Of a stretch of DNA of 32,000 nucleotides, positions 1 through 12,775 are shown one piece after another. Made by a program: the position numbers and the translations under genes. Numbering within the stretch: the stretch's first letter is position 1; each line of letters starts with the position of its first letter. The notes under the pieces were generated by a model. It was not told where the DNA came from. It searched no databases and was given only the letters and a program-made list of their open reading frames with translations. Source of the DNA: Nostoc punctiforme PCC 73102 (GTDB lineage: Bacteria; Cyanobacteriota; Cyanobacteriia; Cyanobacteriales; Nostocaceae); contig NC_010628.1 in the NCBI RefSeq assembly GCF_000020025.1, forward strand, positions 5,580,001 to 5,612,000, in the 5' to 3' direction.

Positions 1-830
1 TTCAAGAACGGTTGCGAAAAGATGCTAATGAAGAAATTAGCAGTTTGCAAAAACGATTAGATGAAATTGAAAGTAAAATTGATGAATTAAATCGAGAACA
101 GGGTGCAAATCAGCAGCAAATTGCTCAACTCACAACTGAAATTGAAGGTTTAAACAAACAAATCGCCAAACAAAAGCTGAATGAAGACAAGCAAACTTTA
201 GCACAGCGACGAATTAACGCCACTCAAGATGCAATCGAACGGTTAACGGAAGTTAGAAATCGTCAAGAACAACAATTTCGTCTGCAACTAGAAAAGCGAG
301 TGCAGGAGATATTCACAGAGATTTCTGTTACTCCATACATTCCTAAAATTAGTGATAAATATGAACTGACATTAGTAGAAAATACTACAGGTGTGGAAGC
401 ACCAGTTGCAGCATCTACTGGGGAAAATCAGATTCTCAGCTTATCCTTTATTGCCAGCATCATTGACAAAGTGCGGGAATGGAGTGAGAAGCGAAAAATG
501 ATGATGATTCCCGATAGTAGTACTTTTCCAATTGTGATGGATTCGCCGTTTGGTAGTTTAGATGAGAATTCGCGGCGACATATAGCAAAGACAATTCCCC
601 AATTAGCGAATCAGTTGATAGTTTTAGTTACTAAGACTCAGTGGCGCGGTGAAGTGGAAGCAGAAATAACAGACAGAATTGGGAGAGAATATGTGCTTAC
701 GTATTATTCTTCTAAACCGGATTGTGAACAAGATTATATTGAGTTGAGTGGAGAAAGATATCCTTTGGTGAAACAAAGTCCGAATGAGTTTGAGTATACA
801 GAAATTATGGAAGTTGAACGAGATAGGTAA
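1..830 (+). CDS. DndD-like SMC/ABC-type ATPase, C-terminal part (5' end upstream of window)
   Basis: The frame is open back to position 3 (QERLRKD...), so the gene is cut by the window edge. A coiled-coil stretch (LQKRLDEIESKIDELNREQ...) is followed by signature-like STGENQILSLSF, Walker-B/D-loop FPIVMDSPFGSLDE and QLIVLVTKTQ. This is the same order as LSAGEKQLLAIAF / PVAIDTPLGRLD / QVILLSTDTE in the DndD at 8823-10808. Confidence 0.75.
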   Translation, partial: QERLRKDANEEISSLQKRLDEIESKIDELNREQGANQQQIAQLTTEIEGLNKQIAKQKLNEDKQTLAQRRINATQDAIERLTEVRNRQEQQFRLQLEKRVQEIFTEISVTPYIPKISDKYELTLVENTTGVEAPVAASTGENQILSLSFIASIIDKVREWSEKRKMMMIPDSSTFPIVMDSPFGSLDENSRRHIAKTIPQLANQLIVLVTKTQWRGEVEAEITDRIGREYVLTYYSSKPDCEQDYIELSGERYPLVKQSPNEFEYTEIMEVERDR

Positions 831-922
831 TTACAGCAGTTTTGATGTCTTTGACCCACATCTGTCATAAGGAAGTAGGCGAAAATATTTTTACAGGAAT
901 GATACAAAATACTTCTCAAATT

Positions 923-957
923 CTTATTCTCCGTGTTCTCTGTGCCTCTGTGGTTTT
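923..957 (-). repeat. Short dispersed repeat (SDR), family aaccgcagaggcgcagaggacgcggag, inverted copy
   Basis: The reverse complement (aaaaccacagaggcacagagaacacggagaataa) aligns at roughly 80% with the copies at 1332-1367 and 10809-10851. Confidence 0.7.
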
Positions 958-1031
958 ATTTTCCGTTACCTGTACATAAATCTGATTTTAGTTACAGTTG
1001 AGAAAATTGGCTTTTGAAAAGGAATAAGATT

Positions 1032-1370
1032 ATGGTTGCGAGTCCAGACAGAAACTATATGTCCCCCCAGGAATATCTGGAATGGGAAGAACGCCAAGAA
1101 ATTAAATATGAATATATTGATGGTGAAGTTTTCGCCATGACTGGGGAGACTTTGCAAGAATACGTCCTCATCGATGCTGAAAAAATTGGTTTAGATTGTT
1201 TTCGGTTAAATGATAGAGGACTTTGGGAGTTACATCCTTATGAGGAAGGGGATGAGGTTCATTTAACTAGTGCTGATTTTCACTTTCCTATTTCTTTGGT
1301 TTATGAGGATGTTCAGTTTGTAGGAAAAACGAACCGCAGAGGCGCAGAGGACGCGGAGAGAAGAGAGTAA
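1032..1370 (+). pseudogene. Uma2 (DUF820) family endonuclease remnant with internal deletion
   Basis: The Uma2 N-terminal block (SPQEYLEWEERQEIKYEYIDGEVFAMTG) joins directly to the family's C-terminal block (LQEYVLIDAEK...WELHPYEEGDEVHLTSADFHFPISLVYEDV). The central part, present in the full-length neighbour and expected to hold the nuclease core, is missing. The 3' end reads through an SDR (NRRGAEDAERRE). Confidence 0.6.
1332..1367 (+). repeat. Short dispersed repeat (SDR), direct copy
   Basis: The sequence aaccgcagaggcgcagaggacgcggagagaagagag matches the inverted copy at 923-957. Together the two bracket the Uma2 remnant. Confidence 0.7.
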
Positions 1371-1406
1371 AATTGAGATTATTACTAACTCATTAAAAGA
1401 TATTTT

Positions 1407-1958
1407 ATGAGTATTAAAACTGAAGCGACTATTGAAGATTTGTACCAATTACCAGACAATTGTAAAGCAGAGATTGTCAATGGGAAATTGGTGCTGATGT
1501 CTCCAACTGGATTTTTACCAGGACGTGCAGGTGGTGAAATTTATGCAAGTCTACGGGATTATAAACGATTGACAAAAAGTGGTTATGCTTTACCTGATAA
1601 TGTTGGTTTCATTGTCAATCTCCCTCATCATCGTTCTTTAAGTCCTGATGCGGCATTTTATACCGGCAAACCTACAGGTGGGAAGTTCCTTAATGGTGCG
1701 CCTGTGTTTGCTGCTGAGGTGAGAAGTGAAAATGATTATGGTGAGACAGCAGAGAAAGATATGGCTAGCAAACGCCGTGATTATTTTGCAGCTGGTACTT
1801 TGGTCGTTTGGGATGTGGATGTACTCAAAGAGGAAGTTATCAGAGTATACCGCGCTAGTAATCCCGAAGAAGCACAAGTGTATCGCCGTGGTGAGGTAGT
1901 GGAAGCTGAACCTGCGTTACCAGGATGGACTATGTTGGTGGATAATTTGTTTGTTTAG
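1407..1958 (+). CDS. Uma2 (DUF820) family putative endonuclease
   Basis: A 183-aa ORF with typical Uma2 layout: N-terminal TIEDLYQLPDNCKAEIVNGKLVLMSP, a central SPDAAF...APVFAAEVRSEND segment (PD...E.xS type core), and a C-terminal KRRDYFAAGTLVVWDVD block. Confidence 0.85.
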   Translation: MSIKTEATIEDLYQLPDNCKAEIVNGKLVLMSPTGFLPGRAGGEIYASLRDYKRLTKSGYALPDNVGFIVNLPHHRSLSPDAAFYTGKPTGGKFLNGAPVFAAEVRSENDYGETAEKDMASKRRDYFAAGTLVVWDVDVLKEEVIRVYRASNPEEAQVYRRGEVVEAEPALPGWTMLVDNLFV

Positions 1959-1967
1959 TGTTTGTTT

Positions 1968-2073
1968 AGCGATCGCCCACATACTATCATTAAATCATAC
2001 CTTTACAATTGCGTAAACGTAGCGATCGCCCACATACTATCATTAAATCATACCTTGGCAATTGCGTAAACGT
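1968..2073 (+). repeat. Tandem duplication, 2 x 53 bp, each unit starting with a HIP1 site
   Basis: The unit agcgatcgcccacatactatcattaaatcatacctt[ta/gg]caattgcgtaaacgt occurs at 1968-2020 and 2021-2073. The copies are 51/53 identical and differ only as TTTACA versus TTGGCA. Confidence 0.9.
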
Positions 2074-2126
2074 AGGCATAGCTTTTCGCTGTCGGTTAAG
2101 ATGGCAAAAATGTAAATATTAATATC

Positions 2127-2585
2127 ATGGCTGCAAATAGAATCAGGGTTGCTAAAGATAAGGCTGAGTTAGTGAAATCTCTAGTAGCATCAAAAGACAC
2201 AACTGGGCCTTTTCAAACTTATGTAGAAGTAATGGTGTTTGCAGCAGCCTTAGGCGTTAAATATAAAAAGCGCATTCCTTTAGACGTAATTTCTAAAGAT
2301 TTATCCCCACTGCGACAAGATTATTTTACTAGCAGCTTCACTCTGTTGATTAATTTGTTAGCTATCACTGAAACAGAAAACATTAAGATTTTAGACGATG
2401 ATAATGTTGCTGATGAGCAACGTATTCACATTTTTGAAGAGTATGCTAACGGTGGTTTAGGAATTATACAAAATGAACTACGCGGAGCAGTAGACTATTC
2501 AGAGAGAATACTATTAATTTTAATTTCTAAAAGATTTGATGATAGTTCAATAGAAGAAGAGTTTGATTTAACTAAATTACTCTAA
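2127..2585 (+). CDS. Small (152 aa) dnd-neighbourhood protein, function unknown; possible distant DndE-like fold
   Basis: ATG-started ORF and first gene of a tightly spaced three-gene operon. By eye it parallels DndE, with NRIRVAKDKAELVKSL versus ERIKLSQTAKDQLTKL and IFEEYANGGLGII versus LHLHRGIGYL. From memory, a curated family called 'DNA phosphorothioation-associated protein 4' lies next to DGQHR proteins. Membership is not verifiable here. Confidence 0.7.
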   Translation: MAANRIRVAKDKAELVKSLVASKDTTGPFQTYVEVMVFAAALGVKYKKRIPLDVISKDLSPLRQDYFTSSFTLLINLLAITETENIKILDDDNVADEQRIHIFEEYANGGLGIIQNELRGAVDYSERILLILISKRFDDSSIEEEFDLTKLL

Positions 2586-2619
2586 CATTTAAACATTTGC
2601 TAAGTTGTAACTACGATAA

Positions 2620-3651
2620 ATGTATCATACAATGATTGGAGAATATGCGGTGACAAATTATATTCAACTACCTGCATGGGAAATTAATCATCCTGGGGGT
2701 AAATTTTATACGTTTATATGTGATACCGAAACTTTGCTACGAATTGCCTATGTCTCTATGGAAGAAAGGAATAAGACGGGTGTTCAGAGACCATTAAGTG
2801 AGAGAAGATGTAAAGAAGTTGCTAAATTTATTAATTCTATTGATGCTGTTATTGCAAATAATATAATCCTCAATTTGCCAGAAGAGACAGAGTATATTCC
2901 TCCTAATACTGAAAGTTTAACTGGTATACTTAAATTCCCAGATAGAGAAAATTCGGCTTGGGTCGTTGATGGTCAGCATAGACTGTTTGGATTTAATTAT
3001 ACTGAAAAAAGACTGAATCTTCTATGCACAGGATTCATAAATATAGGCATAGAAAGCCAAGCCAAAATATTTATTACTATTAACAATGAGCAAAAGGGAA
3101 TTAATCCATCGGTTATTTATGATTTATTACCCTTAATTAAGGATGCTGATTTTAAAGAAAAACGAACACATAGTTTAGTGAAACAGCTAAATCAAGATCC
3201 TGAGTCTCCTTGGTATAATGAAATAAAGATGTTAGGTATTGGGAAGGGATTGGTTTCTCAAGCTGCATTTGCAAGAAATATTGAAATACTTATTGATTCT
3301 AATGGAGGTGTTTTATCACCTTATAATGAAAATCTACAATATGCCATATTAGTTAATTATTTTAATGCTTTTAAAGCGGTTTTTTCTGAAGAATGGGGCA
3401 GTAGTAAATACGTTTTAACAAAAGCAGTTGGTCTATCTGCAATGTGTGGAATTTTTCCCAAGGTTCATAGCCTATGTAGTAAAGATTTTACTGTTGAAAA
3501 TATAATAAAACAAATTTTCAATCTCCAGAAATTTGATTTTAGTAGTGCCAATTTAGGTAAAAGTACAAACAAGGTTGCGATTCAAAAGATTACGGCTGAT
3601 TTAAACAAAATGCTTCCTGAAATCTCAGATACATCTGATATCAAAATATAG
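2620..3651 (+). CDS. DGQHR domain protein (DndB paralogue, ParB-like fold)
   Basis: Carries the VVDGQHRLFGF motif, with an upstream GVQRPLSERRCKEVAKFI block and a downstream FITINNEQKGINPS block. It lies 34 bp after the preceding gene. Confidence 0.85.
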   Translation: MYHTMIGEYAVTNYIQLPAWEINHPGGKFYTFICDTETLLRIAYVSMEERNKTGVQRPLSERRCKEVAKFINSIDAVIANNIILNLPEETEYIPPNTESLTGILKFPDRENSAWVVDGQHRLFGFNYTEKRLNLLCTGFINIGIESQAKIFITINNEQKGINPSVIYDLLPLIKDADFKEKRTHSLVKQLNQDPESPWYNEIKMLGIGKGLVSQAAFARNIEILIDSNGGVLSPYNENLQYAILVNYFNAFKAVFSEEWGSSKYVLTKAVGLSAMCGIFPKVHSLCSKDFTVENIIKQIFNLQKFDFSSANLGKSTNKVAIQKITADLNKMLPEISDTSDIKI

Positions 3652-3670
3652 GAGATGTAGAATTAATTCA

Positions 3671-4621
3671 ATGCTCAACGATATTAGTACTACATTTAAT
3701 AAAAAAACTAGGCCAGGATTGAGTGATAGAAATTTTGATGTTCCTCTTTTAAAAGCTATAATTTATGATCAAATCAAGATTTATAATAGGCAATATTGTA
3801 TTAAAGTATATTTAAAAGATAAAATCACAAAATATGATGGATCAGACAAAGTATACAGTTTTGTAGATCAAGAATTAAAATCAGTTTTGCTGAATGAAGC
3901 AAACCTTCAATTTAGTAAAGCTCTTTATAATTGGTCAATATATAAAAAATTAGTTTCTAAAGGTCTGTGGTCATGGGCTTGTGTTACTTTATATTATGCA
4001 CAATTTTATTGTATTAATGGATTGCTTAATATTCAAGGTAATGCATTCTCTAGACCTAAACTTTTAACAAATATTGGCAAAGAAAAAGAGACAGTATTTC
4101 ATGTATATACTGAAGATTTTGCAGCAGGTAAATTCATTTTTGAAATGAGAAACTACAAACCTCATGAAGATGTATGGCGACAGTATTATAATGTGTACAA
4201 AAATTATAGATATAAAATATCATCTTACAATGAACTTTACCAATATGACATAGATAACCAGTTTGCTATTTTAGAAATTAGGCATCGTGCCAATTATGAT
4301 ACTGCTTTTTTATTAGAGGATTTTATTGAATATTTACTGCCTACAAACGAGCTTGAAGATTTTGCGCTCAAAATGCAGCCTAATATTTTTGAAACATCTT
4401 GGACAGAAGACGAATTCTTAAAATTAGAATATATTGCTTCCTTAAGAATTAAGTTATTATTTGATATTCTTCACGAGATTTTAGGCATAAGTAGTCATTT
4501 AGAAACTATTAGAAAAGATTTATATTTGGAACGTGCAAGTATGTTAAATAATCTTAAAGATGATACACCAGTTAAGGACTGTTTCCTTAATTGGATCGAT
4601 GAGAATAATATTATTATCTGA
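3671..4621 (+). CDS. Hypothetical 316-aa protein with HEPN/UPF0332-like sequence pattern
   Basis: Starts 19 bp after the DGQHR gene and is very AT-rich. The pattern GLWSWACVTLYYAQFYCINGLLNIQG ... ILEIRHRANYD resembles the HEPN (PF05168/UPF0332) helices YYAxFxxxxALL..G and lRxxa(D/N)Y. This is a by-eye call only. Confidence 0.65.
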   Translation: MLNDISTTFNKKTRPGLSDRNFDVPLLKAIIYDQIKIYNRQYCIKVYLKDKITKYDGSDKVYSFVDQELKSVLLNEANLQFSKALYNWSIYKKLVSKGLWSWACVTLYYAQFYCINGLLNIQGNAFSRPKLLTNIGKEKETVFHVYTEDFAAGKFIFEMRNYKPHEDVWRQYYNVYKNYRYKISSYNELYQYDIDNQFAILEIRHRANYDTAFLLEDFIEYLLPTNELEDFALKMQPNIFETSWTEDEFLKLEYIASLRIKLLFDILHEILGISSHLETIRKDLYLERASMLNNLKDDTPVKDCFLNWIDENNIII

Positions 4622-4752
4622 CAATAAGTTAATTTGAGAAGAGTATTTTAAGTGAACAGTATAGATAAAATTTACACCTCATTTAGCCTCTTTCAACTTG
4701 AGAAGGATGATAACGAGGCATGGTTTAACTATGGACAAGTGACCGCTCGGAA

Positions 4753-6351
4753 TTACAAGACAGTTGGAAGTCCTACTGCTTTCGGTTCAACAAACTTACC
4801 ATCAAAACCTATAGTTTTATCTTCCACAGTCCTAGCATCTGCTAAAGCCTTACGAAGTTCAGCACGTTCCATCTGTTCCTGAATTCCACCCAGGATGTAA
4901 ACCAATAACTTCGCCGCTAAATCTCGCCCAGCAACCTGCACCCGCTTTTTATTTGGGTCATATAAAATCCCATACCAGAGAGATTGGGGATATTCCATAC
5001 CGCTAAAGCCGCCTTGCTGGTCAAACTTCCGTAGCTTCTTAAAAATATCTGCTAGAGAAAAACCTTTTTTAAATACCAAAATTCCCAAAGCTTGCGCTAA
5101 TGCAACTTGAGCAACCGGACGGAAAAGCATATTTCCTTCACCTCCATCCTTCTCAAAACTGAATCGCCGTAAAGCTGGTGTATCCTCGTGTTCTAAAATT
5201 TTATAACTGGAAAGACTAGCCAAATTATCAAATAGCTTGCTAAATTCCTGAATCCCCTGCTCAAGTTCTTCATCCTCTGGACGCATTGGAATTAGACCTT
5301 TCTCCAAGGGTTTCCAGTGGGGGAACTTTTGAGCCAAATATCGCTCAGACATATCTTGCAGAGCTTGCAAAGTCGTCAAAACTGTAGAATTGGAAGCTAC
5401 TGTTGCACTATTCCAATTAACACGAGGTTTGCGTTCTTGTTGCTGTTCTAATAGTGGATGTGTAACTGCAATTTTTCTAGCGACGATCGCAAAACCATCA
5501 TCTTCATTCAACTGTGTTAGTTGCCCTTTAGTCAATGGTGCAGCCATCAGGTTGACATGAACAAAAATCGATCTTACCCTCCGCCTCGCCTGGGTGCGAG
5601 TTTCCCCAGCCGCTACCGCACAGATGAACTCAATACCAATTTTTTCCTTGGGTAAATTTTGCAAGTAAGCAAGGTCTACTTGGTACTTTTCTATCAAATC
5701 ATTGACTGTAATAAAACTGTCATCAACACCTTTATCTTTTTTATAGCGCTGGAGTTTACGAGTTTTGATTAACTCCATCAACCCCTGAACTCCCATCAGT
5801 CGATGTTGTCCATCTAGTGCATAAATGGTTACATCATCCTCAGAAATATTTAGCAGACCTACCTTACCGTCTTTATCTAGGGGTATAAAATCAGTCGTAG
5901 ACTTGGTGGCGCGTCCTTCGCTATCCCACTCAGCAGCTTTGGGATTATCCACCCACGGTTGATTAATCACCACCAGCACCGGCGGGAACTTATGATTGTC
6001 TCTAGCCGCTAAATACTGGACTAGCGGTGCTTGACGTGACCAATCAAGGGGACGCTGCTGAATTTCATCAATACTATCTGCATCAATTTCGACATTATCA
6101 GTTTCAGGATTATACTTTTTCTGAAATAGAGGTAAGCCAGAGGCGAAGTGAACCCGACCTGCAAACCATTCCAATGTAACAGAGCTAACATAAGCCTCAG
6201 TACCACCCATCTCGGTTTTTTGAACGAGAATCTGATCTTTTCTCCCTAAAAACTTCTCTAGGAGTAAAGCTAGTACCTGCTTTTCCTTGTTTTCTCGTTC
6301 CAGGTATTCTCTAGCGATGTCAGCAGTTGGGTCGGATGCACTGTCTTTCAT
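4753..6351 (-). CDS. dndB: DNA sulfur modification protein DndB (DGQHR domain), long 532-aa form
   Basis: Carries the IYALDGQHRLMGVQG motif and the IFVHVNLMAAPLTKGQ block. It is divergently placed next to dndC. Confidence 0.85.
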   Translation of the reverse strand: MKDSASDPTADIAREYLERENKEKQVLALLLEKFLGRKDQILVQKTEMGGTEAYVSSVTLEWFAGRVHFASGLPLFQKKYNPETDNVEIDADSIDEIQQRPLDWSRQAPLVQYLAARDNHKFPPVLVVINQPWVDNPKAAEWDSEGRATKSTTDFIPLDKDGKVGLLNISEDDVTIYALDGQHRLMGVQGLMELIKTRKLQRYKKDKGVDDSFITVNDLIEKYQVDLAYLQNLPKEKIGIEFICAVAAGETRTQARRRVRSIFVHVNLMAAPLTKGQLTQLNEDDGFAIVARKIAVTHPLLEQQQERKPRVNWNSATVASNSTVLTTLQALQDMSERYLAQKFPHWKPLEKGLIPMRPEDEELEQGIQEFSKLFDNLASLSSYKILEHEDTPALRRFSFEKDGGEGNMLFRPVAQVALAQALGILVFKKGFSLADIFKKLRKFDQQGGFSGMEYPQSLWYGILYDPNKKRVQVAGRDLAAKLLVYILGGIQEQMERAELRKALADARTVEDKTIGFDGKFVEPKAVGLPTVL

Positions 6352-6440
6352 GTTAAATTTTAAAAATAGAATAGTATTATGTAGTTCAATTATCCAAAAA
6401 ACTGGATATTAGTAGTAAAGTTTTTAAAAACTGTTTTTTC

Positions 6441-6499
6441 AAACCACGGAGGTGGGTTTTGTCTGTATAGCCGCGAATTCTATTCGCCCTATTCGCCCG
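6441..6499 (-). repeat. REP-like element (two-hairpin unit), inverted orientation, in the dndB-dndC divergent spacer
   Basis: The reverse complement cgggcgaatagggcgaatagaattcgcggctatacagacaaaacccacctccgtggttt matches the copies at 8178-8234, 8251-8305 and 8745-8796. Confidence 0.8.
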
Positions 6500-6533
6500 A
6501 ATATTAAGCCAGTGTTTCCAGAGAGAAGGAGAA

Positions 6534-8159
6534 ATGACTACAGCACAACAAACAGAAAATAAAGGTCAGCAGACACGTACTGTAGCAGAGTTAGTGGAAG
6601 ATATCAAAGCTCTCACTACTGAAATTCAAGAATTGTATTGTTTGGATCAGATACCTTGGGTTTTAGGTGTGTCTTGGGGAAAAGACTCTAGCACAGTATT
6701 GCAGCTTGTGTGGAATGCGATCGCTGCTCTTCCTCCAGAAAAAAGAACTAAAACGGTTTATGTAATTACAACCGATACTCAGGTAGAAAATCCTGTAGTG
6801 TCTGCTTGGGTTCGCAAATCCTTGCAGAATCTCAAGATAGCTGCAAAAGAACAGGGGATGCCAATCGATCCACATTTACTACAACCAGTAATTCAAGACA
6901 CATTTTGGGTAAATCTTATTGGTAAAGGATATCCAGCACCTCGTAACCAGTTTCGCTGGTGTACACCACGTTTAAAAATTAATCCTGCTAATCAATTCAT
7001 CCGTGAAATAGTTAGAGCTAACGGTGAAACAATTCTTGTATTGGGTACTCGCAAAGCAGAAAGCTCAAAACGTGCCGCCACAATGAAAAAGCATCAGGTT
7101 GATAGAGTACGAGATCGCCTGAGTCCTAATGCCAGCTTACCCAACTCCTTAATCTATACCCCTATTGAAGATTGGAGTAATAACGATGTCTGGATATATC
7201 TAAATCAGTGGAATAATCCTTGGGGACAAAGCAATAAAGAATTATTCACGATGTATCGAGGTGCAACAGCTGATAATGAATGTCCACTAGTTGTTGATAC
7301 TTCTACTCCTAGCTGTGGTGATTCCCGATTTGGCTGTTGGGTTTGCACACTAGTGAGTAAAGATAAATCAATGGAAGCAATGATCCAAAATGATGAAGAA
7401 AAAGAATGGATGCAGCCATTATTAGATATCCGTAACGAGCTAGATATTAAAGATGACCGAGACAAAAGAGATTTTAGAAGAATTTGGGGTGAGGTACAAC
7501 TTTTTGAGCGTAACAAAGATGGGAAGATATCTGTTGATCCAATACCTGGGCCTTATACAAAATATTGGCGCGAATATTGGCTTAAACGATTATTAGAAGC
7601 GCAAATAAAAACACGTCGGACAGCGCCAGAAAATATGCGCGACATCACTCTAATTACTCTAGAAGAAATGAGCGAAATTCGCCGCATTTGGCTAGAAGAT
7701 AAACACGAATTTGATGATAGCTTACCCCGGATTTATCAAGAAGTGACTGGAGAAGAATTTCAAGATCCTCGTCCTGGCGCTGACTATAGCCTACTAGGTC
7801 GTGATGAATGGATAGTATTAGAAGAAATCTGTGAAGGTGACGCGATGCACTTGGAACTCATGGCGAAATTGTTAGATACAGAACGCCAGTATCGCAAAAA
7901 GACTCGTCGTGTGGGAATATATGAAACTTTAGAAAAATGCTTTAATACGAGTTCCCGTTCTCCAGAAGATGCGATTAAAAATGCTCGTTTGAAACGCGAA
8001 TTAAGCGAAGCAGTTAGTCAAGGTGACGTTGCAAAAGTCAAGCAGATGACTTTAGGCGATGTTGCAGCAATCAATGAAGTAGATGAAGGTCAAAGTGAAA
8101 GTGATGAAGAGGTAACTTGGGCAAGTATGAAATTTAAAAAGGAAAATTCAGAAGAATAG
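6534..8159 (+). CDS. dndC: DNA phosphorothioation protein DndC (PAPS reductase/PP-loop family)
   Basis: A 541-aa ORF with a PP-loop-like VSWGKDSS motif, the Cys cluster CPLVVDTSTPSCGDSRFGCWVC, and FRWCTPRLKI. Confidence 0.9.
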   Translation: MTTAQQTENKGQQTRTVAELVEDIKALTTEIQELYCLDQIPWVLGVSWGKDSSTVLQLVWNAIAALPPEKRTKTVYVITTDTQVENPVVSAWVRKSLQNLKIAAKEQGMPIDPHLLQPVIQDTFWVNLIGKGYPAPRNQFRWCTPRLKINPANQFIREIVRANGETILVLGTRKAESSKRAATMKKHQVDRVRDRLSPNASLPNSLIYTPIEDWSNNDVWIYLNQWNNPWGQSNKELFTMYRGATADNECPLVVDTSTPSCGDSRFGCWVCTLVSKDKSMEAMIQNDEEKEWMQPLLDIRNELDIKDDRDKRDFRRIWGEVQLFERNKDGKISVDPIPGPYTKYWREYWLKRLLEAQIKTRRTAPENMRDITLITLEEMSEIRRIWLEDKHEFDDSLPRIYQEVTGEEFQDPRPGADYSLLGRDEWIVLEEICEGDAMHLELMAKLLDTERQYRKKTRRVGIYETLEKCFNTSSRSPEDAIKNARLKRELSEAVSQGDVAKVKQMTLGDVAAINEVDEGQSESDEEVTWASMKFKKENSEE

Positions 8160-8177
8160 AAGACCGAGTGAATAAAA

Positions 8178-8234
8178 GACCGGGCGAATGGAATTCGCGG
8201 CTACACAGACGAAACCCACCTCCGTGGGTTGAAG
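8178..8234 (+). repeat. REP-like element copy A
   Basis: The sequence is gaccgggcgaatggaattcgcggctacacagacgaaacccacctccgtgggttgaag. It has two hairpins: gcgaat/attcgc and aacccac/gtgggtt. Confidence 0.8.
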
Positions 8235-8250
8235 ACAAATAAGTTTAATT

Positions 8251-8305
8251 CCCGGCGATTGGAAATCGTGGCTACACAGACGAAACCCGCCTGTGCGGGT
8301 TAAAG
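8251..8305 (+). repeat. REP-like element copy B
   Basis: The sequence cccggcgattggaaatcgtggctacacagacgaaacccgcctgtgcgggttaaag has the same architecture as copy A. It sits immediately 5' of the RAYT ORF. Confidence 0.8.
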
Positions 8306-8308
8306 AAA

Positions 8309-8722
8309 ATGAGAGCAAATTTTACGCAATTGTATCTACATTATGTTTGGGCGACATAGGATAGATTACCCTTAATTACGCCTGATATTCAAAAGGAAGT
8401 TTACGGCGCAATTATCCGCGAATCTGAGGAGTTAAAATGTACCATCATTGCAATTGGTGGGATTGAAGATCATGTGCATTTCCTGACAGGTTTTCCATCA
8501 ACCATCAGTGTCTCTGAATGGGTTAAACAAATTAAGGGAAGTTCTTCGCATTTCATCACCCACGAAATCAAACCGGGTGAGTTTTTCAAATGGCAAGGTA
8601 GCTACGCAGCATTTACAGTTAGTCATGATGCCATCGACAGTGTAGCCAATTACATCAGAAACCAACCCACCCACCATAGCCAAAAATCAATCATTCCCAC
8701 CTGGGAACTGACTCCCAAGTAA
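8309..8722 (+). pseudogene. REP-associated tyrosine transposase (RAYT, IS200/IS605 TnpA-like) with one in-frame TAG
   Basis: Translation gives MRANFTQLYLHYVWAT*DRLPLITPD...GIEDHVHFL (HUH motif)...WQGSYAAFTVS (Tyr motif). The stop at 8357-8359 splits an otherwise intact reading frame. REP copies flank it in inverted orientation. Confidence 0.8.
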
Positions 8723-8744
8723 ATGAACAACTATGTATGAATTT

Positions 8745-8796
8745 AGTCCGCGGAGGCGGACTTTGCCTGTGTAGCTGCGAATTCCATTCGCCCGGT
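8745..8796 (-). repeat. REP-like element copy C (inverted)
   Basis: The reverse complement accgggcgaatggaattcgcagctacacaggcaaagtccgcctccgcggact matches copy A. Confidence 0.8.
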
Positions 8797-8822
8797 ATCT
8801 TATAAACCTTGCTTAAAAACTA

Positions 8823-10808
8823 ATGATATTTCTTGAACTCGTTCTACAAAACTTTGGCCCGTATAGCGGAAAACAAGTAATCAACCTTAACCCAAAAATT
8901 GATGAGGAAACCTCACACCCAATTATTCTCTTAGGTGGGATGAATGGCGGCGGAAAAACTACCCTTATGGATGCCATTCGTCTCGCTCTTTATGGCGCTC
9001 GTGCCCAATGTTCTACCCGTGGTAATTTAAGTTATAGCGATTTTCTCAACCAATGTGTTAACAACAAAATTGATCCAGTTGCAGACACCCGGATTGAATT
9101 ACTTTTTGAACATATTGAAAACGATAAACCAATAAAATACCGTGTTGTGCGTAGTTGGACAAAAAATCCTAAAGATGGTAAAGATACATTAGGTATTTTA
9201 GGTGACAGTGATACATGGCCCGATGCTTTAGTTAATATCTGGGATGAATATATTGAAAATCTCCTGCCATTAGGAATTTCTAACTTATTTCTCTTTGATG
9301 GTGAACAAGTTAAAGAACTCGCAGAACAGGAAACACCACCACCAGTTGTAGTAGACGCAATTCGCGGACTTTTAGGTTTAGAGTTAGCAGATCGTTTAGC
9401 AGTTGATTTAGATATCTTAGTTAACCGTAAACTGAAAGAAGTTGGTAATAGTAAAGATTTAGCAAACCTAGAAGAAATTGAAACTAGGTTAACCCAACAG
9501 CAAGAAGATTATCAAACAACAGGAGAAAAATTAGAAACTCTCAAAAATCAGGTAGAAGAGTTAGAACAAAAGCAGCAAGAAGCCTTTGATAAATTCATTT
9601 CTGAAGGTGGGAAGATTGCTGCAGAACGCAATCAGCTAGAACTACAACAGGATACAAAAACTGCGGAAATTGAACAAGTACGTCAGTCAATGTGTGAATT
9701 GGCGGCTGATGTTTTACCTTTGGCATTAATTCCCAATTTGCTTAATCAGGTGCAGACACAGGGCGAAAAAGAATTTCGCCATCAACAGGTACAAATCTCC
9801 AAGGATTTGTTACTTAAACGAGATCAGCGCTTACTCGCTTGGCTAAATCAAGTAGAAATTTCTCCGATACAAGTTGAAAAAATCCAATCATTTTTAATCC
9901 AAGATGTAGATAGTTTATATGCAAAGACTATCCAGATAGAAGCAGCTTGGCTATTAGCCGATGATGAAAGTTTAAGTCAGCTAGATAACCTTATATATCA
10001 TTTACAAAATTCTAAAATTTCTGCAAAAGAGAAATTAGCTATTCTCAAAAATAAAGGAGAAGAAATTCATACTTTAGAAAGACAAGTGCAAACAGCAGCA
10101 GCACCAGAAGATTATACAAAGCTGCGTCAAGCATTAGAAACGGCACAAAATCAAGTTGTTGAAGCTAAAGCAAATTATGAAACAATCCGCCGCCGTTTAG
10201 CTGAATTAGAAACTGTTATTGCTAAGTCAAAGAGAGAATTAAGTGATTATACCGTAGAAAATATTAAACATAAAAATAGCGAACATATTATTACCTCAGC
10301 AGCGAAAGTTCAAGAAACACTCAAGACTTTTCGGGAAAAATTAACTCTGCGAAAACTCAATAAATTAGAGGAGGAAGTTAAAAATTGCTTCCTTTATCTC
10401 CTGCACAAATCAGATTTAGTGCATCGTATCACTATTGATACCAAGACCTTTAGCCTTTTGCTTTATGATTTAAATGGTAAACCTGTACCTAAACATCGCC
10501 TCTCTGCTGGGGAAAAACAACTACTTGCGATCGCATTCCTTTGGGGTTTAGCCAAAGTCTCTGGACACCGCCTACCAGTAGCAATCGATACGCCACTAGG
10601 TAGACTAGACTCCTCTCACCGCAGTAATTTAGTTGAACGTTACTTTCCATCCGCCAGTCACCAAGTAATTTTGCTATCTACGGATACGGAGATTGGCAAG
10701 AAAGAAGTGGAAACACTGCGAGAAAATGAAGCGATCGCCCGTGAATATCTGCTCAAATATGACTCTACCACCCGCCAAACTACCATACAACCAGGATATT
10801 TTTGGTAA
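8823..10808 (+). CDS. dndD: DNA sulfur modification protein DndD (SMC-like ATPase)
   Basis: N-terminal MIFLELVLQNFGPYSG, Walker A GGMNGGGKTT, a long coiled coil, the signature LSAGEKQLLAIAF, and Walker B PVAIDTPLGRLD. Confidence 0.9.
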   Translation: MIFLELVLQNFGPYSGKQVINLNPKIDEETSHPIILLGGMNGGGKTTLMDAIRLALYGARAQCSTRGNLSYSDFLNQCVNNKIDPVADTRIELLFEHIENDKPIKYRVVRSWTKNPKDGKDTLGILGDSDTWPDALVNIWDEYIENLLPLGISNLFLFDGEQVKELAEQETPPPVVVDAIRGLLGLELADRLAVDLDILVNRKLKEVGNSKDLANLEEIETRLTQQQEDYQTTGEKLETLKNQVEELEQKQQEAFDKFISEGGKIAAERNQLELQQDTKTAEIEQVRQSMCELAADVLPLALIPNLLNQVQTQGEKEFRHQQVQISKDLLLKRDQRLLAWLNQVEISPIQVEKIQSFLIQDVDSLYAKTIQIEAAWLLADDESLSQLDNLIYHLQNSKISAKEKLAILKNKGEEIHTLERQVQTAAAPEDYTKLRQALETAQNQVVEAKANYETIRRRLAELETVIAKSKRELSDYTVENIKHKNSEHIITSAAKVQETLKTFREKLTLRKLNKLEEEVKNCFLYLLHKSDLVHRITIDTKTFSLLLYDLNGKPVPKHRLSAGEKQLLAIAFLWGLAKVSGHRLPVAIDTPLGRLDSSHRSNLVERYFPSASHQVILLSTDTEIGKKEVETLRENEAIAREYLLKYDSTTRQTTIQPGYFW

Positions 10809-10851
10809 CTCCCTCCTCTTTTCTCTGTCTCCTCTGTACCTCTGCGGTTCG
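10809..10851 (-). repeat. Short dispersed repeat (SDR) filling the dndD-dndE spacer
   Basis: The reverse complement aacgaaccgcagaggtacagaggagacagagaaaagaggagggag aligns with the copy at 1332-1367. Confidence 0.7.
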
Positions 10852-10865
10852 TTAATCAAAAACTT

Positions 10866-11252
10866 ATGGAATCACCAATAGAAAGAATTAAACTCTCCCA
10901 AACAGCCAAAGATCAACTTACCAAACTTAAGCGCAGCACTAAAATCGACCAATGGAATATTTTATGCCGTTGGGCGTTTTGTCGTTCCCTCGCGGAAGCA
11001 ACCACACCTTCCCCCGTCCCAATTCCCCAGGATAGCAACGTCGAAATGAGTTGGCGCGTTTTTGGTGGCGAAATGTCTGATATACTCCTTCTCGCCCTCA
11101 AGCAACGCTGTCACAATGACGGCTATCCCACCGACAAAGAAACCCTCGCCACCCAGTTCCGCCTGCATTTGCATCGCGGTATTGGCTATTTAGCAGGCGA
11201 TCCAAATATCAAGAAAATTGAAGATTTAATTGAACTAGCGGTTAAAAATTGA
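10866..11252 (+). CDS. dndE: DNA sulfur modification protein DndE
   Basis: A 128-aa ORF directly after dndD. RIKLSQTAKDQLTKLKRSTKIDQWNILCRWAFCRSL is typical of the DndE N-terminus. Confidence 0.8.
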   Translation: MESPIERIKLSQTAKDQLTKLKRSTKIDQWNILCRWAFCRSLAEATTPSPVPIPQDSNVEMSWRVFGGEMSDILLLALKQRCHNDGYPTDKETLATQFRLHLHRGIGYLAGDPNIKKIEDLIELAVKN

Positions 11253-11256
11253 AAGG

Positions 11257-11316
11257 ATATTAGTTGACTGTTAACTGTTCACTGTTCACTGTTCACTGTT
11301 AACTGACAACTAATAT
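11257..11316 (+). repeat. STRR-like heptamer array (ACTGTTC/ACTGTTA) enclosed in a 19-bp imperfect inverted repeat
   Basis: The arms atattagttgactgttaac (11257-11275) and gttaactgacaactaatat (11298-11316) pair at 17 of 19 positions. The loop holds tgttcac heptamers. The element ends 1 nt before the ATG at 11318. Confidence 0.85.
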
Positions 11317-11317
11317 T

Positions 11318-12775
11318 ATGCCTGAAGCGCTAGAAATTGAGCGTCATAGAGCTGCGATCGCTCGCATTGATATATCTCGCCCTGTACGATTGGCTATAGA
11401 AGGGTCAATCCTCAATCAAGACACCACTTTTTTTGACTACGGTTGCGGCTACGGTGGTGATGTGCAGCGAGTAAAAAACTTAGGCTACACCAGTGCAGGC
11501 TGGGACCCTTACTACTATCCTGATGTGCCACGCACCCCCGCCGATGTAGTCAATCTAGGTTACGTCCTCAACGTTATTGAAGACTCAGAAGAACGCCGTC
11601 AAAGCCTGATCCAAGCCTGGGAACTCACTGGGAAAGTTTTAATTGTCGCGGCTCAAATACTGATTAACGCTCCCAGCAAAACCCAGTTTGCTTACAATGA
11701 TGGCATTGTGACGCGCCGCAATACTTTTCAGAAATATTACGAACAACAAGAACTCAAAACTTATATTGATGAAGTCTTAAATGTAGATGCAGTACCGATC
11801 GCACTAGGCGTTTACTTTGTTTTTCGAGATGAAGCTGAAAAAGAAAGCTACAAAGCTATCCGCTTCTTTTCTGTGACTTCTACACCGCGAGTTCGCATTC
11901 CCACCAAGCGGTTTGAAGACTATCAAGAACAGCTGCAACCCTTAATGGCTTTTTTTACCAAGCGCGGTAGACTACCTGTGAAAGGCGAATTGGAAAATGA
12001 ACAGGAATTACTGAGCGAATTTGGTAACTTCCGCCGCGCCTTTGGTGTAGTTTTGCAAGCTACTGATGAGGCTGAATGGGATGCGATCGCTTATCGTCGT
12101 TCTCTTGATATCCAAGTTTATCTCGCCCTGACTCACTTTGATAAACGTCCTGCATGGCAAAAGTTAGCGCCAGAAATGCGTCACGATATCAAAGCCTTTT
12201 TTAGTAGTTATGAAGAAGCTTGTCAAGTAGCCGATCAAAAGCTTTTCAGCTTAGGCAAACCTGGGGTGATTCAAAATGCTTGTGAAAAAAGCAAAATTGG
12301 TAAACATACGCGTGGTGCGCTTTACGTCCATGTTTCCGCACTAGCAGCACTTGACCCAGTACTACGAATTTGTGAAGGTTGCGCTAGCCGTACTATTGGA
12401 CGTGTCGATGAAGCCACATTAATTAAATATCACACCGATAAGCCGCAAATCTCCTATCTGTCTTACCCCGAATTCGATACCGATCCTCATCCCGCGTTAA
12501 AAGCCAGCATCGGTATTGATTTAAAAACCTTATTTGTCACTCATCGAGACTACGAAACTAGAGCAAATCCGCCGATTTTGCACCGTAAGGAAACATTTGT
12601 TACCAGCAACTACCCACGCTACGAAGAATTTGCTAAACTCACCCAACAAGAACAGCAATTAGGATTACTCAATAGCAAAAGCGACATTGGTACGCGTGAA
12701 GGTTGGGAAAAATGCCTTGCTGCACACAGAGTAGAGATCAGGGGGCATCAAGTTTATTCCATTAAGGAAAATTAA
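11318..12775 (+). CDS. dnd-associated putative SAM-dependent methyltransferase
   Basis: Contains methyltransferase motif I (FFDYGCGYGGDV), then NLGYVLNVIED, then a long C-terminal region of about 300 aa with no motif I recognise. Position after dndE fits the curated family of DNA phosphorothioation-associated putative methyltransferases (TIGR04096, recalled from memory). Confidence 0.75.
   Translation: MPEALEIERHRAAIARIDISRPVRLAIEGSILNQDTTFFDYGCGYGGDVQRVKNLGYTSAGWDPYYYPDVPRTPADVVNLGYVLNVIEDSEERRQSLIQAWELTGKVLIVAAQILINAPSKTQFAYNDGIVTRRNTFQKYYEQQELKTYIDEVLNVDAVPIALGVYFVFRDEAEKESYKAIRFFSVTSTPRVRIPTKRFEDYQEQLQPLMAFFTKRGRLPVKGELENEQELLSEFGNFRRAFGVVLQATDEAEWDAIAYRRSLDIQVYLALTHFDKRPAWQKLAPEMRHDIKAFFSSYEEACQVADQKLFSLGKPGVIQNACEKSKIGKHTRGALYVHVSALAALDPVLRICEGCASRTIGRVDEATLIKYHTDKPQISYLSYPEFDTDPHPALKASIGIDLKTLFVTHRDYETRANPPILHRKETFVTSNYPRYEEFAKLTQQEQQLGLLNSKSDIGTREGWEKCLAAHRVEIRGHQVYSIKEN

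Follow-up and report, generated by a model that had tools for sequence, protein, structure and literature searches.

A 32,000-nucleotide stretch of the Nostoc punctiforme PCC 73102 genome (contig NC_010628.1, positions 5,580,001 to 5,612,000 of the forward strand; hereafter the window) carries Dnd genes together with what look like second copies of some of them, and the question raised by this locus is whether these second copies belong together. An earlier note on this DNA had pointed to two DGQHR proteins, two DndD-type ATPases, one of them cut by the left edge of the window, and a 152-aa protein that might echo DndE, alongside only one DndC. It had proposed that these formed a DndB'/DndD'/DndE'-like set without sulfur insertion, that is, a reader or restriction arm derived from the writer by duplication. 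We mapped the genes by open reading frame (ORF) listing and by Pfam, NCBIfam and PADLOC family scans, and compared them with 80 species-level cyanobacterial loci retrieved with the 152-aa protein (identified below as PbeD), and with a second set of metagenomic PbeD loci. Individual loci are given L numbers where they need to be told apart.

The region is very probably a phosphorothioate (PT) defense island made up of three units: a Dnd writer, a PbeABCD arm, and a mobile cassette consisting of the second DGQHR gene and a 316-aa partner. The proposal of a duplication-derived, non-sulfurating reader arm holds for the ATPase and for the 152-aa protein, which are parts of the published PbeABCD system, but not for the second DGQHR protein, which lies outside that system. 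Since that system was published in 2019 and 2024, the core idea, that Dnd scanning components copied without the sulfur step act as a reader or restriction arm, adds nothing new, and its value here is that of a clean worked example. Two side points are modestly novel, namely PbeA proteins without a PLD domain in operons with embedded Uma2 genes, and an uncharacterized DGQHR/HEPN-like cassette. For these we tentatively suggest, as one possible account, that the PLD/HKD domain of cyanobacterial PbeA was exchanged for an operon-embedded Uma2, and that the DGQHR/HEPN-like pair is an undescribed, self-contained two-gene defense system, able to work alone (as in Bacillus subtilis) and repeatedly recruited between Pbe and Dnd genes.

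The PbeABCD module

The partial ATPase at the left edge of the window matched PbeC in PADLOC (PDLC02753, E value 1e-132), versus an E value of 1e-18, below cutoff, for the DndD model TIGR03185. A public contig, L001, differs from the window by a single copy of a 53-bp repeat and provided the upstream DNA, in which the genes follow the order OTCase, LexA, a 453/492-aa superfamily 2 (SF2) helicase, a 57-aa ORF and the complete 690-aa ATPase. The latter is PbeC from end to end (PADLOC, E value 0), with the CxC motif RCICG in the part of the gene that lies outside the window. The helicase, also outside the window, is PbeA (PADLOC, E value 4e-162, profile positions 249-681), and the 57-aa ORF, kept in related loci and overlapping the start of PbeC in L001, is PbeB. 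The 152-aa protein scored above cutoff for TIGR04062, DNA phosphorothioation-associated protein 4 (NCBIfam, E value 1e-59), is 100% identical to N. punctiforme protein P0086, and is PbeD. Where nothing is inserted, PbeC and PbeD are 0-64 bp apart (L008, L098, L099, L103, L127 and L146), and in the first five of these loci, all without Uma2, the ATPase gene directly abuts that of PbeD. The ATPase and the 152-aa gene are thus one operon, PbeA-PbeB-PbeC-...-PbeD, and the suspicion that the ATPase belonged to another system lying to the left was not borne out. A Lamassu, Wadjet or OLD identity for the ATPase was also considered and rejected, as none of the best 25 of its 61 PADLOC matches was to anything but PbeC or DndD, and the complete ATPase was PbeC throughout.

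The backbone LexA-PbeA-PbeB-PbeC-...-PbeD-...-DndB(-)-DndC-DndD-DndE-TIGR04096 was repeated across the 80 cyanobacterial PbeD loci, with DndC present in 71, PbeC in 62 and both in 56 of them.

PbeABCD has been reported to have PT-dependent antiviral activity that requires all four pbe genes and blocks viral DNA replication (Xiong et al. 2019, PMC6459918); the same paper gives the length of PbeD as 152 aa, and TIGR04062 and TIGR04095 had been defined as PT-dependent families in 2011 (PMC3226654). By analogy with that haloarchaeal system, the module in N. punctiforme would serve as a reader or restriction arm, in which the PbeC-PbeD pair would scan DNA and the module as a whole would keep DNA without the host's PT mark from being replicated. 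It counts against this picture of the island that PT modification and restriction in N. punctiforme are themselves assumed from homology.

The two ATPases do share their conserved segments in the order that had been described for them: in the alignment, the signature STGENQ of PbeC corresponds to SAGEKQ in DndD, the Walker B segment VMDSPFGSLD to AIDTPLGRLD, and the T-x-T segment VLVTKTQ to LLSTDTE. Over their whole lengths they are 22% identical, and PbeD and DndE have no BLAST similarity, so that the description of these genes as paralogue pairs holds in a deep sense only. DndE is composed of two ribbon-helix-helix (RHH) domains. The CxC-clade ABC ATPases and their cognate clade-2 DndE proteins have been traced to an ancient duplication of DndD and DndE (Rakesh, Aravind & Krishnan 2024, PMC10853773), and of the taxa that carry Dnd, 22% were found to have the resulting system in tandem with it (PMC10853773). 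On that authority the 152-aa protein, as a TIGR04062/PbeD protein, does echo DndE. Apart from BLAST, several comparisons made here did not bring out the relationship, but with shallow alignments and a poor model these results are not taken as evidence against it. The 152-aa protein had no Pfam DndE match, and a local hhalign comparison of 83 PbeD with 47 DndE sequences gave a probability of 1.4%, although both alignments were shallow (at least 65% identity, Neff about 2). A PDB profile search with PbeD returned no DndE, and neither did a Foldseek search with its AlphaFold2 (AF2) model, which was poor (pLDDT 65). Since sequence, profile and structure comparisons did not recover the kinship of PbeD and DndE, it is taken here from PMC10853773.

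PbeD occurs in two forms. In L017-L030 it is 153 aa long and 86-89% identical to that of the window, and in L041-L065 it is 156 aa long and 65-69% identical, with PbeD at approximately 10001-10465 in each locus. In Nostoc loci with either form, PbeC, DndB and DndD stay at 92-97% identity, and DndC co-varies with PbeD (93-97% versus 74-84%). The pattern points to allelic exchange, or to diversification, in which the DNA-binding subunit and DndC change together. Orphan PbeD genes, with no PbeA, PbeB or PbeC within 10 kb upstream, were also seen in L026, L028, L036, L050, L054 and L058, and in the metagenomic loci L124, L140, L141, L154 and L173; Dnd genes adjoin the orphan in all six of the former and in two of the latter, and Uma2 fragments lie upstream in some.

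The second DGQHR protein and its partner

Both DGQHR proteins of the window matched TIGR03187, as expected from the earlier note. The second one, of 343 aa, did so with an E value of 5e-65 (220 bits versus a cutoff of 59), fell below the equivalog cutoffs of DpdB (112 bits versus 300) and DGQHR_dnd_1 (130 bits versus 450), and had no match to TIGR03233. A recent duplication was considered as the origin of the two genes and rejected, because their products are alike only over a 35-residue stretch around the motif (E value 2e-5). In every context that we examined, homologues of the 343-aa protein were followed, 3-19 bp downstream, by a gene for a partner of the 316-aa type (approximately 300-316 aa).

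The distribution of this pair is patchy. Just 2 of the 80 cyanobacterial PbeD loci contain it, and no metagenomic PbeD locus does. The pair of Bacillus subtilis and that of L097 stand alone, surrounded by housekeeping genes. L009 and L096 have it in unrelated restriction-modification islands, where its neighbors are a C5 methylase, an HATPase_c_3 protein and an Mrr-helicase in the former and GmrSD_N, an Eco57I-type enzyme and an Mrr_cat protein in the latter. In none of these four were Pbe or Dnd genes found within 9-10 kb of the pair. In a rough neighbor joining tree the Pbe-linked DGQHR copies were not monophyletic. The patchy distribution, the stand-alone and unrelated-island contexts and the lack of monophyly together indicate that the pair is a mobile two-gene cassette and not the DndB-prime of a trio.

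One set of observations weighs against complete independence of the cassette: in three differently arranged islands (the window with its Nostocales relatives, L008 and L098) the pair lies directly after PbeD and before the Dnd genes, and this placement makes a functional link of the cassette to Pbe or Dnd possible. Together with the location of all three genes on one strand of the window, it also speaks for the original suggestion of one reader trio made up of the upstream ATPase, the 152-aa protein and the second DGQHR protein. That suggestion is largely refuted by the distribution of the DGQHR gene, since the gene is missing from 78 of the 80 cyanobacterial and all of the metagenomic PbeD loci, and since it always keeps its own partner, with or without Pbe and Dnd genes within 10 kb. 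In addition, the published Pbe system requires PbeA-D only (PMC6459918). Given also the lack of monophyly, we consider a single trio extremely improbable.

Nor does a role of the second DGQHR protein as a further DndB-type transcriptional regulator, tuning the Pbe or Dnd operons, seem at all probable. Repression of dnd by DndB, modulated by ATP, has been reported (cited in PMC10853773), and the 343-aa protein has the DGQHR domain. However, it does not reach the DndB equivalog model, it resembles the DndB-like protein of the window in the motif region alone, it comes strictly with a conserved partner in which putatively catalytic residues are invariant, and the pair is also found in places that offer no Dnd-like target of regulation (B. 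subtilis and L097).

The 316-aa partner itself had no match to any Pfam, PADLOC or NCBIfam family, no homologue in the plasmid or phage collections and no viral structural match. The family is rare, with 22 word-index matches and 114 representatives out of 1.84 billion. Its AF2 model (pLDDT 92) is mostly helical with a beta insert. Among 61 diverse members, Y108, H165, R204 and Y209 were invariant and W102, Y109, W169 and N208 nearly so, giving a family motif, E-x3-R-N-x2-N-Y, plus an invariant histidine. The only meaningful PDB match was to a small HEPN protein, 2hsb (Foldseek probability 0.99, TM-score 0.68 normalized to the target, E value 0.35). The canonical catalytic motif of HEPN proteins is R-x4-6-H. 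Several of these data argue for caution in calling the partner HEPN-like: the E value of the structural match is high, the Pfam HEPN model was hit in just 4 of the 61 family members and below cutoff (E value 0.009), and the R-x4-6-H motif was not found in the family, which has R-N-x-x-N-Y in its place and its histidine elsewhere (H165).

More distant DGQHR relatives were paired with an HNH protein instead. Fusions of ParB-like DGQHR domains to HNH, PD-(D/E)xK or HEPN domains are on record, and DndB has been described as ParB plus HEPN (PMC3632139). Because of these fusions and the HNH-paired relatives, the cassette looks like a familiar theme divided over two genes; literature searches on DGQHR and on DndB with HEPN yielded no description of it as a two-gene unit. 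It may act as a split ParB-nuclease effector of the SspE/GmrSD/DndB kind, with the DGQHR protein as a nucleoside triphosphate (NTP)-dependent DNA sensor and the partner as an HEPN-type effector, and it would do so either alone or as a back-up of the PT system. The DGQHR/HEPN-like pair is of interest as a compact and rare candidate defense cassette that is absent from PADLOC and Pfam.

The variable slot between PbeD and DndB

The cassette occupies a position whose content changes from locus to locus. The PbeD-DndB interval ranges from 130 to 2835 bp among related loci, and contains an HNH enzyme of 313 aa that is similar to NF045808, a restriction endonuclease binding PT-DNA (37 loci), a 562-aa DGQHR protein (11 loci), a 396-aa protein with a full-length Pfam DndB match (11 loci), or the DGQHR/HEPN-like cassette as in the window (2 loci). 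A GIY-YIG-like protein of 225 aa is also found in this slot, in 8 loci, and the other DGQHR proteins of Nostocales occur there with or without it. A second DGQHR gene adjoining the gene in the DndB position is thus a recurrent feature, but one to which different families contribute. Overall, the slot behaves like an exchangeable effector position.

This raises the alternative that the DGQHR/HEPN-like pair is a PT-linked effector, one that reads the PT status set by the Dnd writer and stands in for the PT-DNA-binding HNH endonuclease found at this position in most Nostocales. It is the positional equivalent of the NF045808-like enzyme, it keeps its place between PbeD and Dnd in three architectures, and there are precedents: SspE is an effector of the ParB-like type that senses PT, and DndB has been described as ParB fused to HEPN (PMC10853773, PMC3632139). 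On the other hand, no sulfur-binding domain was detected, and the pair is also found by itself or next to methylase-based islands, with dnd genes missing from the surrounding 9-10 kb. We regard this alternative as doubtful.

Uma2 genes and the shortened PbeA

Members of the Uma2 family (PF05685) are putative PD-(D/E)xK restriction endonucleases. The earlier note had counted two Uma2 genes as separating the ATPase from the rest of the locus; two are indeed present, one of them a remnant, but in cyanobacteria they are conserved occupants of the PbeC-PbeD gap and not a one-off insertion. At least one Uma2 gene was found in this gap in 47 of the 61 loci in which the gap could be measured, on the operon strand every time, and in 15 loci Uma2 starts 2-12 bp past the PbeC stop. 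All 83 Uma2-like segments in these 61 loci (1.18 Mb) fell within the gap, which makes up 8% of the bases, with none elsewhere. The genes belong to three or four Uma2 subfamilies, including those in Oscillatoriales and metagenomic loci. The intact copy of the window matched the Pfam model over its full length (E value 2.9e-26) and has orthologues of 90-95% identity in the same position in 22 loci.

The helicase of these operons is short. None of 57 cyanobacterial PbeA proteins had an N-terminal PLD domain, and their profile alignment begins only at about residue 214-261 of full-length PbeA; L008 PbeA has the domain, and an N-terminal HKD/PLD endonuclease domain has been described for the "vast majority" of PbeA proteins (PMC10853773). 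When both data sets were pooled, Uma2 was present in 55 of 73 loci with a short PbeA versus none of six with a full-length PbeA (Fisher p 5e-4, for loci that are not phylogenetically independent). The PD-(D/E)xK-like Uma2 protein in the operon may supply the nuclease that cyanobacterial PbeA lacks. Two observations tell against this. In the remnant copy of the window an in-frame internal deletion of about 90 codons has removed the catalytic core (compared with 189-aa orthologues in 40 loci), leaving Pfam matches to the first 28 profile positions and to a second stretch, and some loci with a short PbeA (L116 and L127) lack Uma2 altogether, with PbeC and PbeD only 0-33 bp apart. Loci of the latter kind imply that Uma2 is not obligatory, and because of them, and of the phylogenetic non-independence of the loci, we infer a replacement of the nuclease with caution only.

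No published link between Uma2 and Pbe was found in the papers searched. The association of Uma2 with PLD-less PbeA bears on an open dispute, since DNA cleavage by Pbe was not seen in one study (PMC6459918) and was argued for in another (PMC10853773). If true, the exchange of the PLD domain for Uma2 would be the first defined role for the large cyanobacterial Uma2 family, and would support DNA cutting by Pbe-type systems.

The same features could be read as decay: the Pbe module would have lost the PbeA nuclease, its PbeC-PbeD spacer would have filled up with selfish Uma2 genes and repeats, and the arm would no longer function. The missing PLD domain and the internal deletion in one Uma2 copy fit such a history, as do the polymorphic 53-bp repeat upstream of pbeD, the range in size of the PbeC-PbeD gap among related loci (170 to 4900 bp), and the loci that retain PbeD without PbeABC within 10 kb. 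However, PbeA, PbeB, PbeC and PbeD are intact and 60-97% conserved over dozens of species-level genomes, and Uma2 is always co-oriented, often within 2-12 bp of the PbeC stop, with no copies elsewhere in the 1.18 Mb of flanking DNA. Decay thus appears unlikely to us, and the exchange of the PLD domain for an embedded Uma2 remains the account that we tentatively put forward.

Two further gap contents may be mentioned. An SLH/DUF3370 porin-like gene lies between PbeC and Uma2 in L007/L040 (Tolypothrix tenuis PCC 7101) and in 12 loci overall. In L132, which has a full-length PbeA, the gap contains a 225-aa ORF on the opposite strand (L132:6625-7302, minus) with a PD-(D/E)xK-like motif, IVEAKKDD.

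The Dnd writer and other features of the window

The positions of all features are given in Table 1; housekeeping genes follow beyond the TIGR04096 gene.

Table 1. Genes and repeats of the probable PT defense island of N. punctiforme, in window coordinates
Feature	Coordinates	Strand	Basis
PbeC, C-terminal 275 aa of a 690-aa CxC-type ABC ATPase	1..830 (open frame 3-830, runs off left edge)	+	PADLOC
Uma2-family remnant (c0 type)	1014..1370	+	Pfam Uma2, two partial stretches
Intact Uma2-family (PD-(D/E)xK-like) protein, 183 aa, c2 type	1407..1958	+	Pfam Uma2
53-bp tandem repeat, 2.1 copies, with HIP1 palindrome GCGATCGC	1967..2075	n/a	TRF
PbeD (TIGR04062, dnd_assoc_4), 152 aa	2127..2585	+	NCBIfam
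Second DGQHR (ParB-like) protein, 343 aa, first cassette gene	2620..3651	+	TIGR03187
316-aa cassette partner, HEPN-like, no family model	3671..4621	+	AF2 model and Foldseek
532-aa DGQHR protein, DndB position	4753..6351	-	TIGR03187
DndC, PP-loop sulfurtransferase	6534..8159	+	TIGR03183
DndD, ABC/SMC-like ATPase	8823..10808	+	TIGR03185
DndE	10866..11252	+	Pfam DndE and TIGR03184
Dnd-associated putative methyltransferase (TIGR04096), 485 aa	11318..12775	+	NCBIfam

The core writer genes were confirmed, and DndC is, as had been noted, the only one of its kind: DndC (TIGR03183, E value 6e-220), DndD (TIGR03185, E value 7e-223) and DndE (Pfam DndE, E value 5.6e-47; TIGR03184, E value 7e-42) all scored above the cutoffs of their TIGR models. 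The 532-aa protein in the DndB position, divergently oriented from dndC and conserved in 69 of the 80 loci, is a long cyanobacterial form that matched TIGR03187 in two stretches (E value 2e-60). It had no match to the DndB equivalog TIGR03233, which the DndB proteins of L008 and L098 do reach. The 485-aa protein downstream of DndE matched TIGR04096 above cutoff (E value 2e-214), was found in 41 of the 80 loci, and had no Pfam or PADLOC match. Together, the divergent DndB-like DGQHR protein, DndC-DndD-DndE and the methyltransferase-like protein would form the writer that installs PT on host DNA. A search for a cysteine desulfurase (Aminotran_5) among window ORFs of at least 100 aa was negative, in agreement with the earlier note, and sulfur is presumably mobilized by such an enzyme encoded elsewhere. 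Substitution of IscS for DndA is established in other Dnd systems.

The dndC-dndD gap of 660 bp (8160-8822), with a 16-bp tandem repeat at 8154-8189, varies widely in size among relatives. In L007/L040, DndD and DndE are absent after DndC and a 231-aa ORF, a DUF790 protein and an XPB-type helicase are found instead.

With regard to noncoding features, a promoter and terminator scan of positions 700-6700 gave the same result as shuffled sequence. The HIP1 palindrome GCGATCGC and the heptamer repeats of the window are cyanobacterial hallmarks. The 53-bp repeat, just upstream of pbeD, has one copy more in the window than in contig L001, the two being identical otherwise, and it is at this repeat that a number of public assemblies break. 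The heptamer GTTCACT occurs six times at 11263-11305, between dndE and the TIGR04096 gene; heptamer repeats of this kind are known as the short tandemly repeated repetitive (STRR) type in heterocystous cyanobacteria.

Comparison with known systems

The writer agrees with DndBCDE(A) in having DndC, DndD and DndE proteins that pass the equivalog cutoffs and a divergent DGQHR gene in the DndB position, and differs in that its DndB-position protein is 532 aa long and outside TIGR03233, in that DndA is absent from the window, and in that a TIGR04096 gene follows DndE. The restriction arm has the PbeABCD order of helicase, small protein, CxC-motif ATPase and 152-aa PbeD directly beside dndCDE, with PbeC and PbeA fitting the PADLOC models and PbeD and PbeA fitting TIGR04062 and TIGR04095, respectively. 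It is different in that no PbeA of the cyanobacterial loci examined has the N-terminal PLD/HKD nuclease domain, and in that one or two Uma2 genes, in some relatives with the porin-like gene too, separate PbeC from PbeD. The 183-aa Uma2 protein of the window is a full-length member of its Pfam family, and is unlike the family at large in being embedded in an operon and associated with a PLD-less PbeA.

The PT-dependent endonucleases in which a sulfur-binding domain (SBD) is joined to HNH (ScoMcrA type; NF045808) have their counterparts in the equivalent PbeD-DndB slot of 37 related loci, whereas in the window that slot holds the DGQHR/HEPN-like pair. The cassette is closest to the ParB-like (DUF262/DGQHR) effectors SspE, GmrSD/BrxU and DndB (PMC3632139, PMC4619093). 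It differs from them in being encoded by two separate genes and in having an unclassified partner with R-N-x-x-N-Y, not R-x4-6-H, and shares with them the coupling of a DGQHR/ParB-like domain to an effector.

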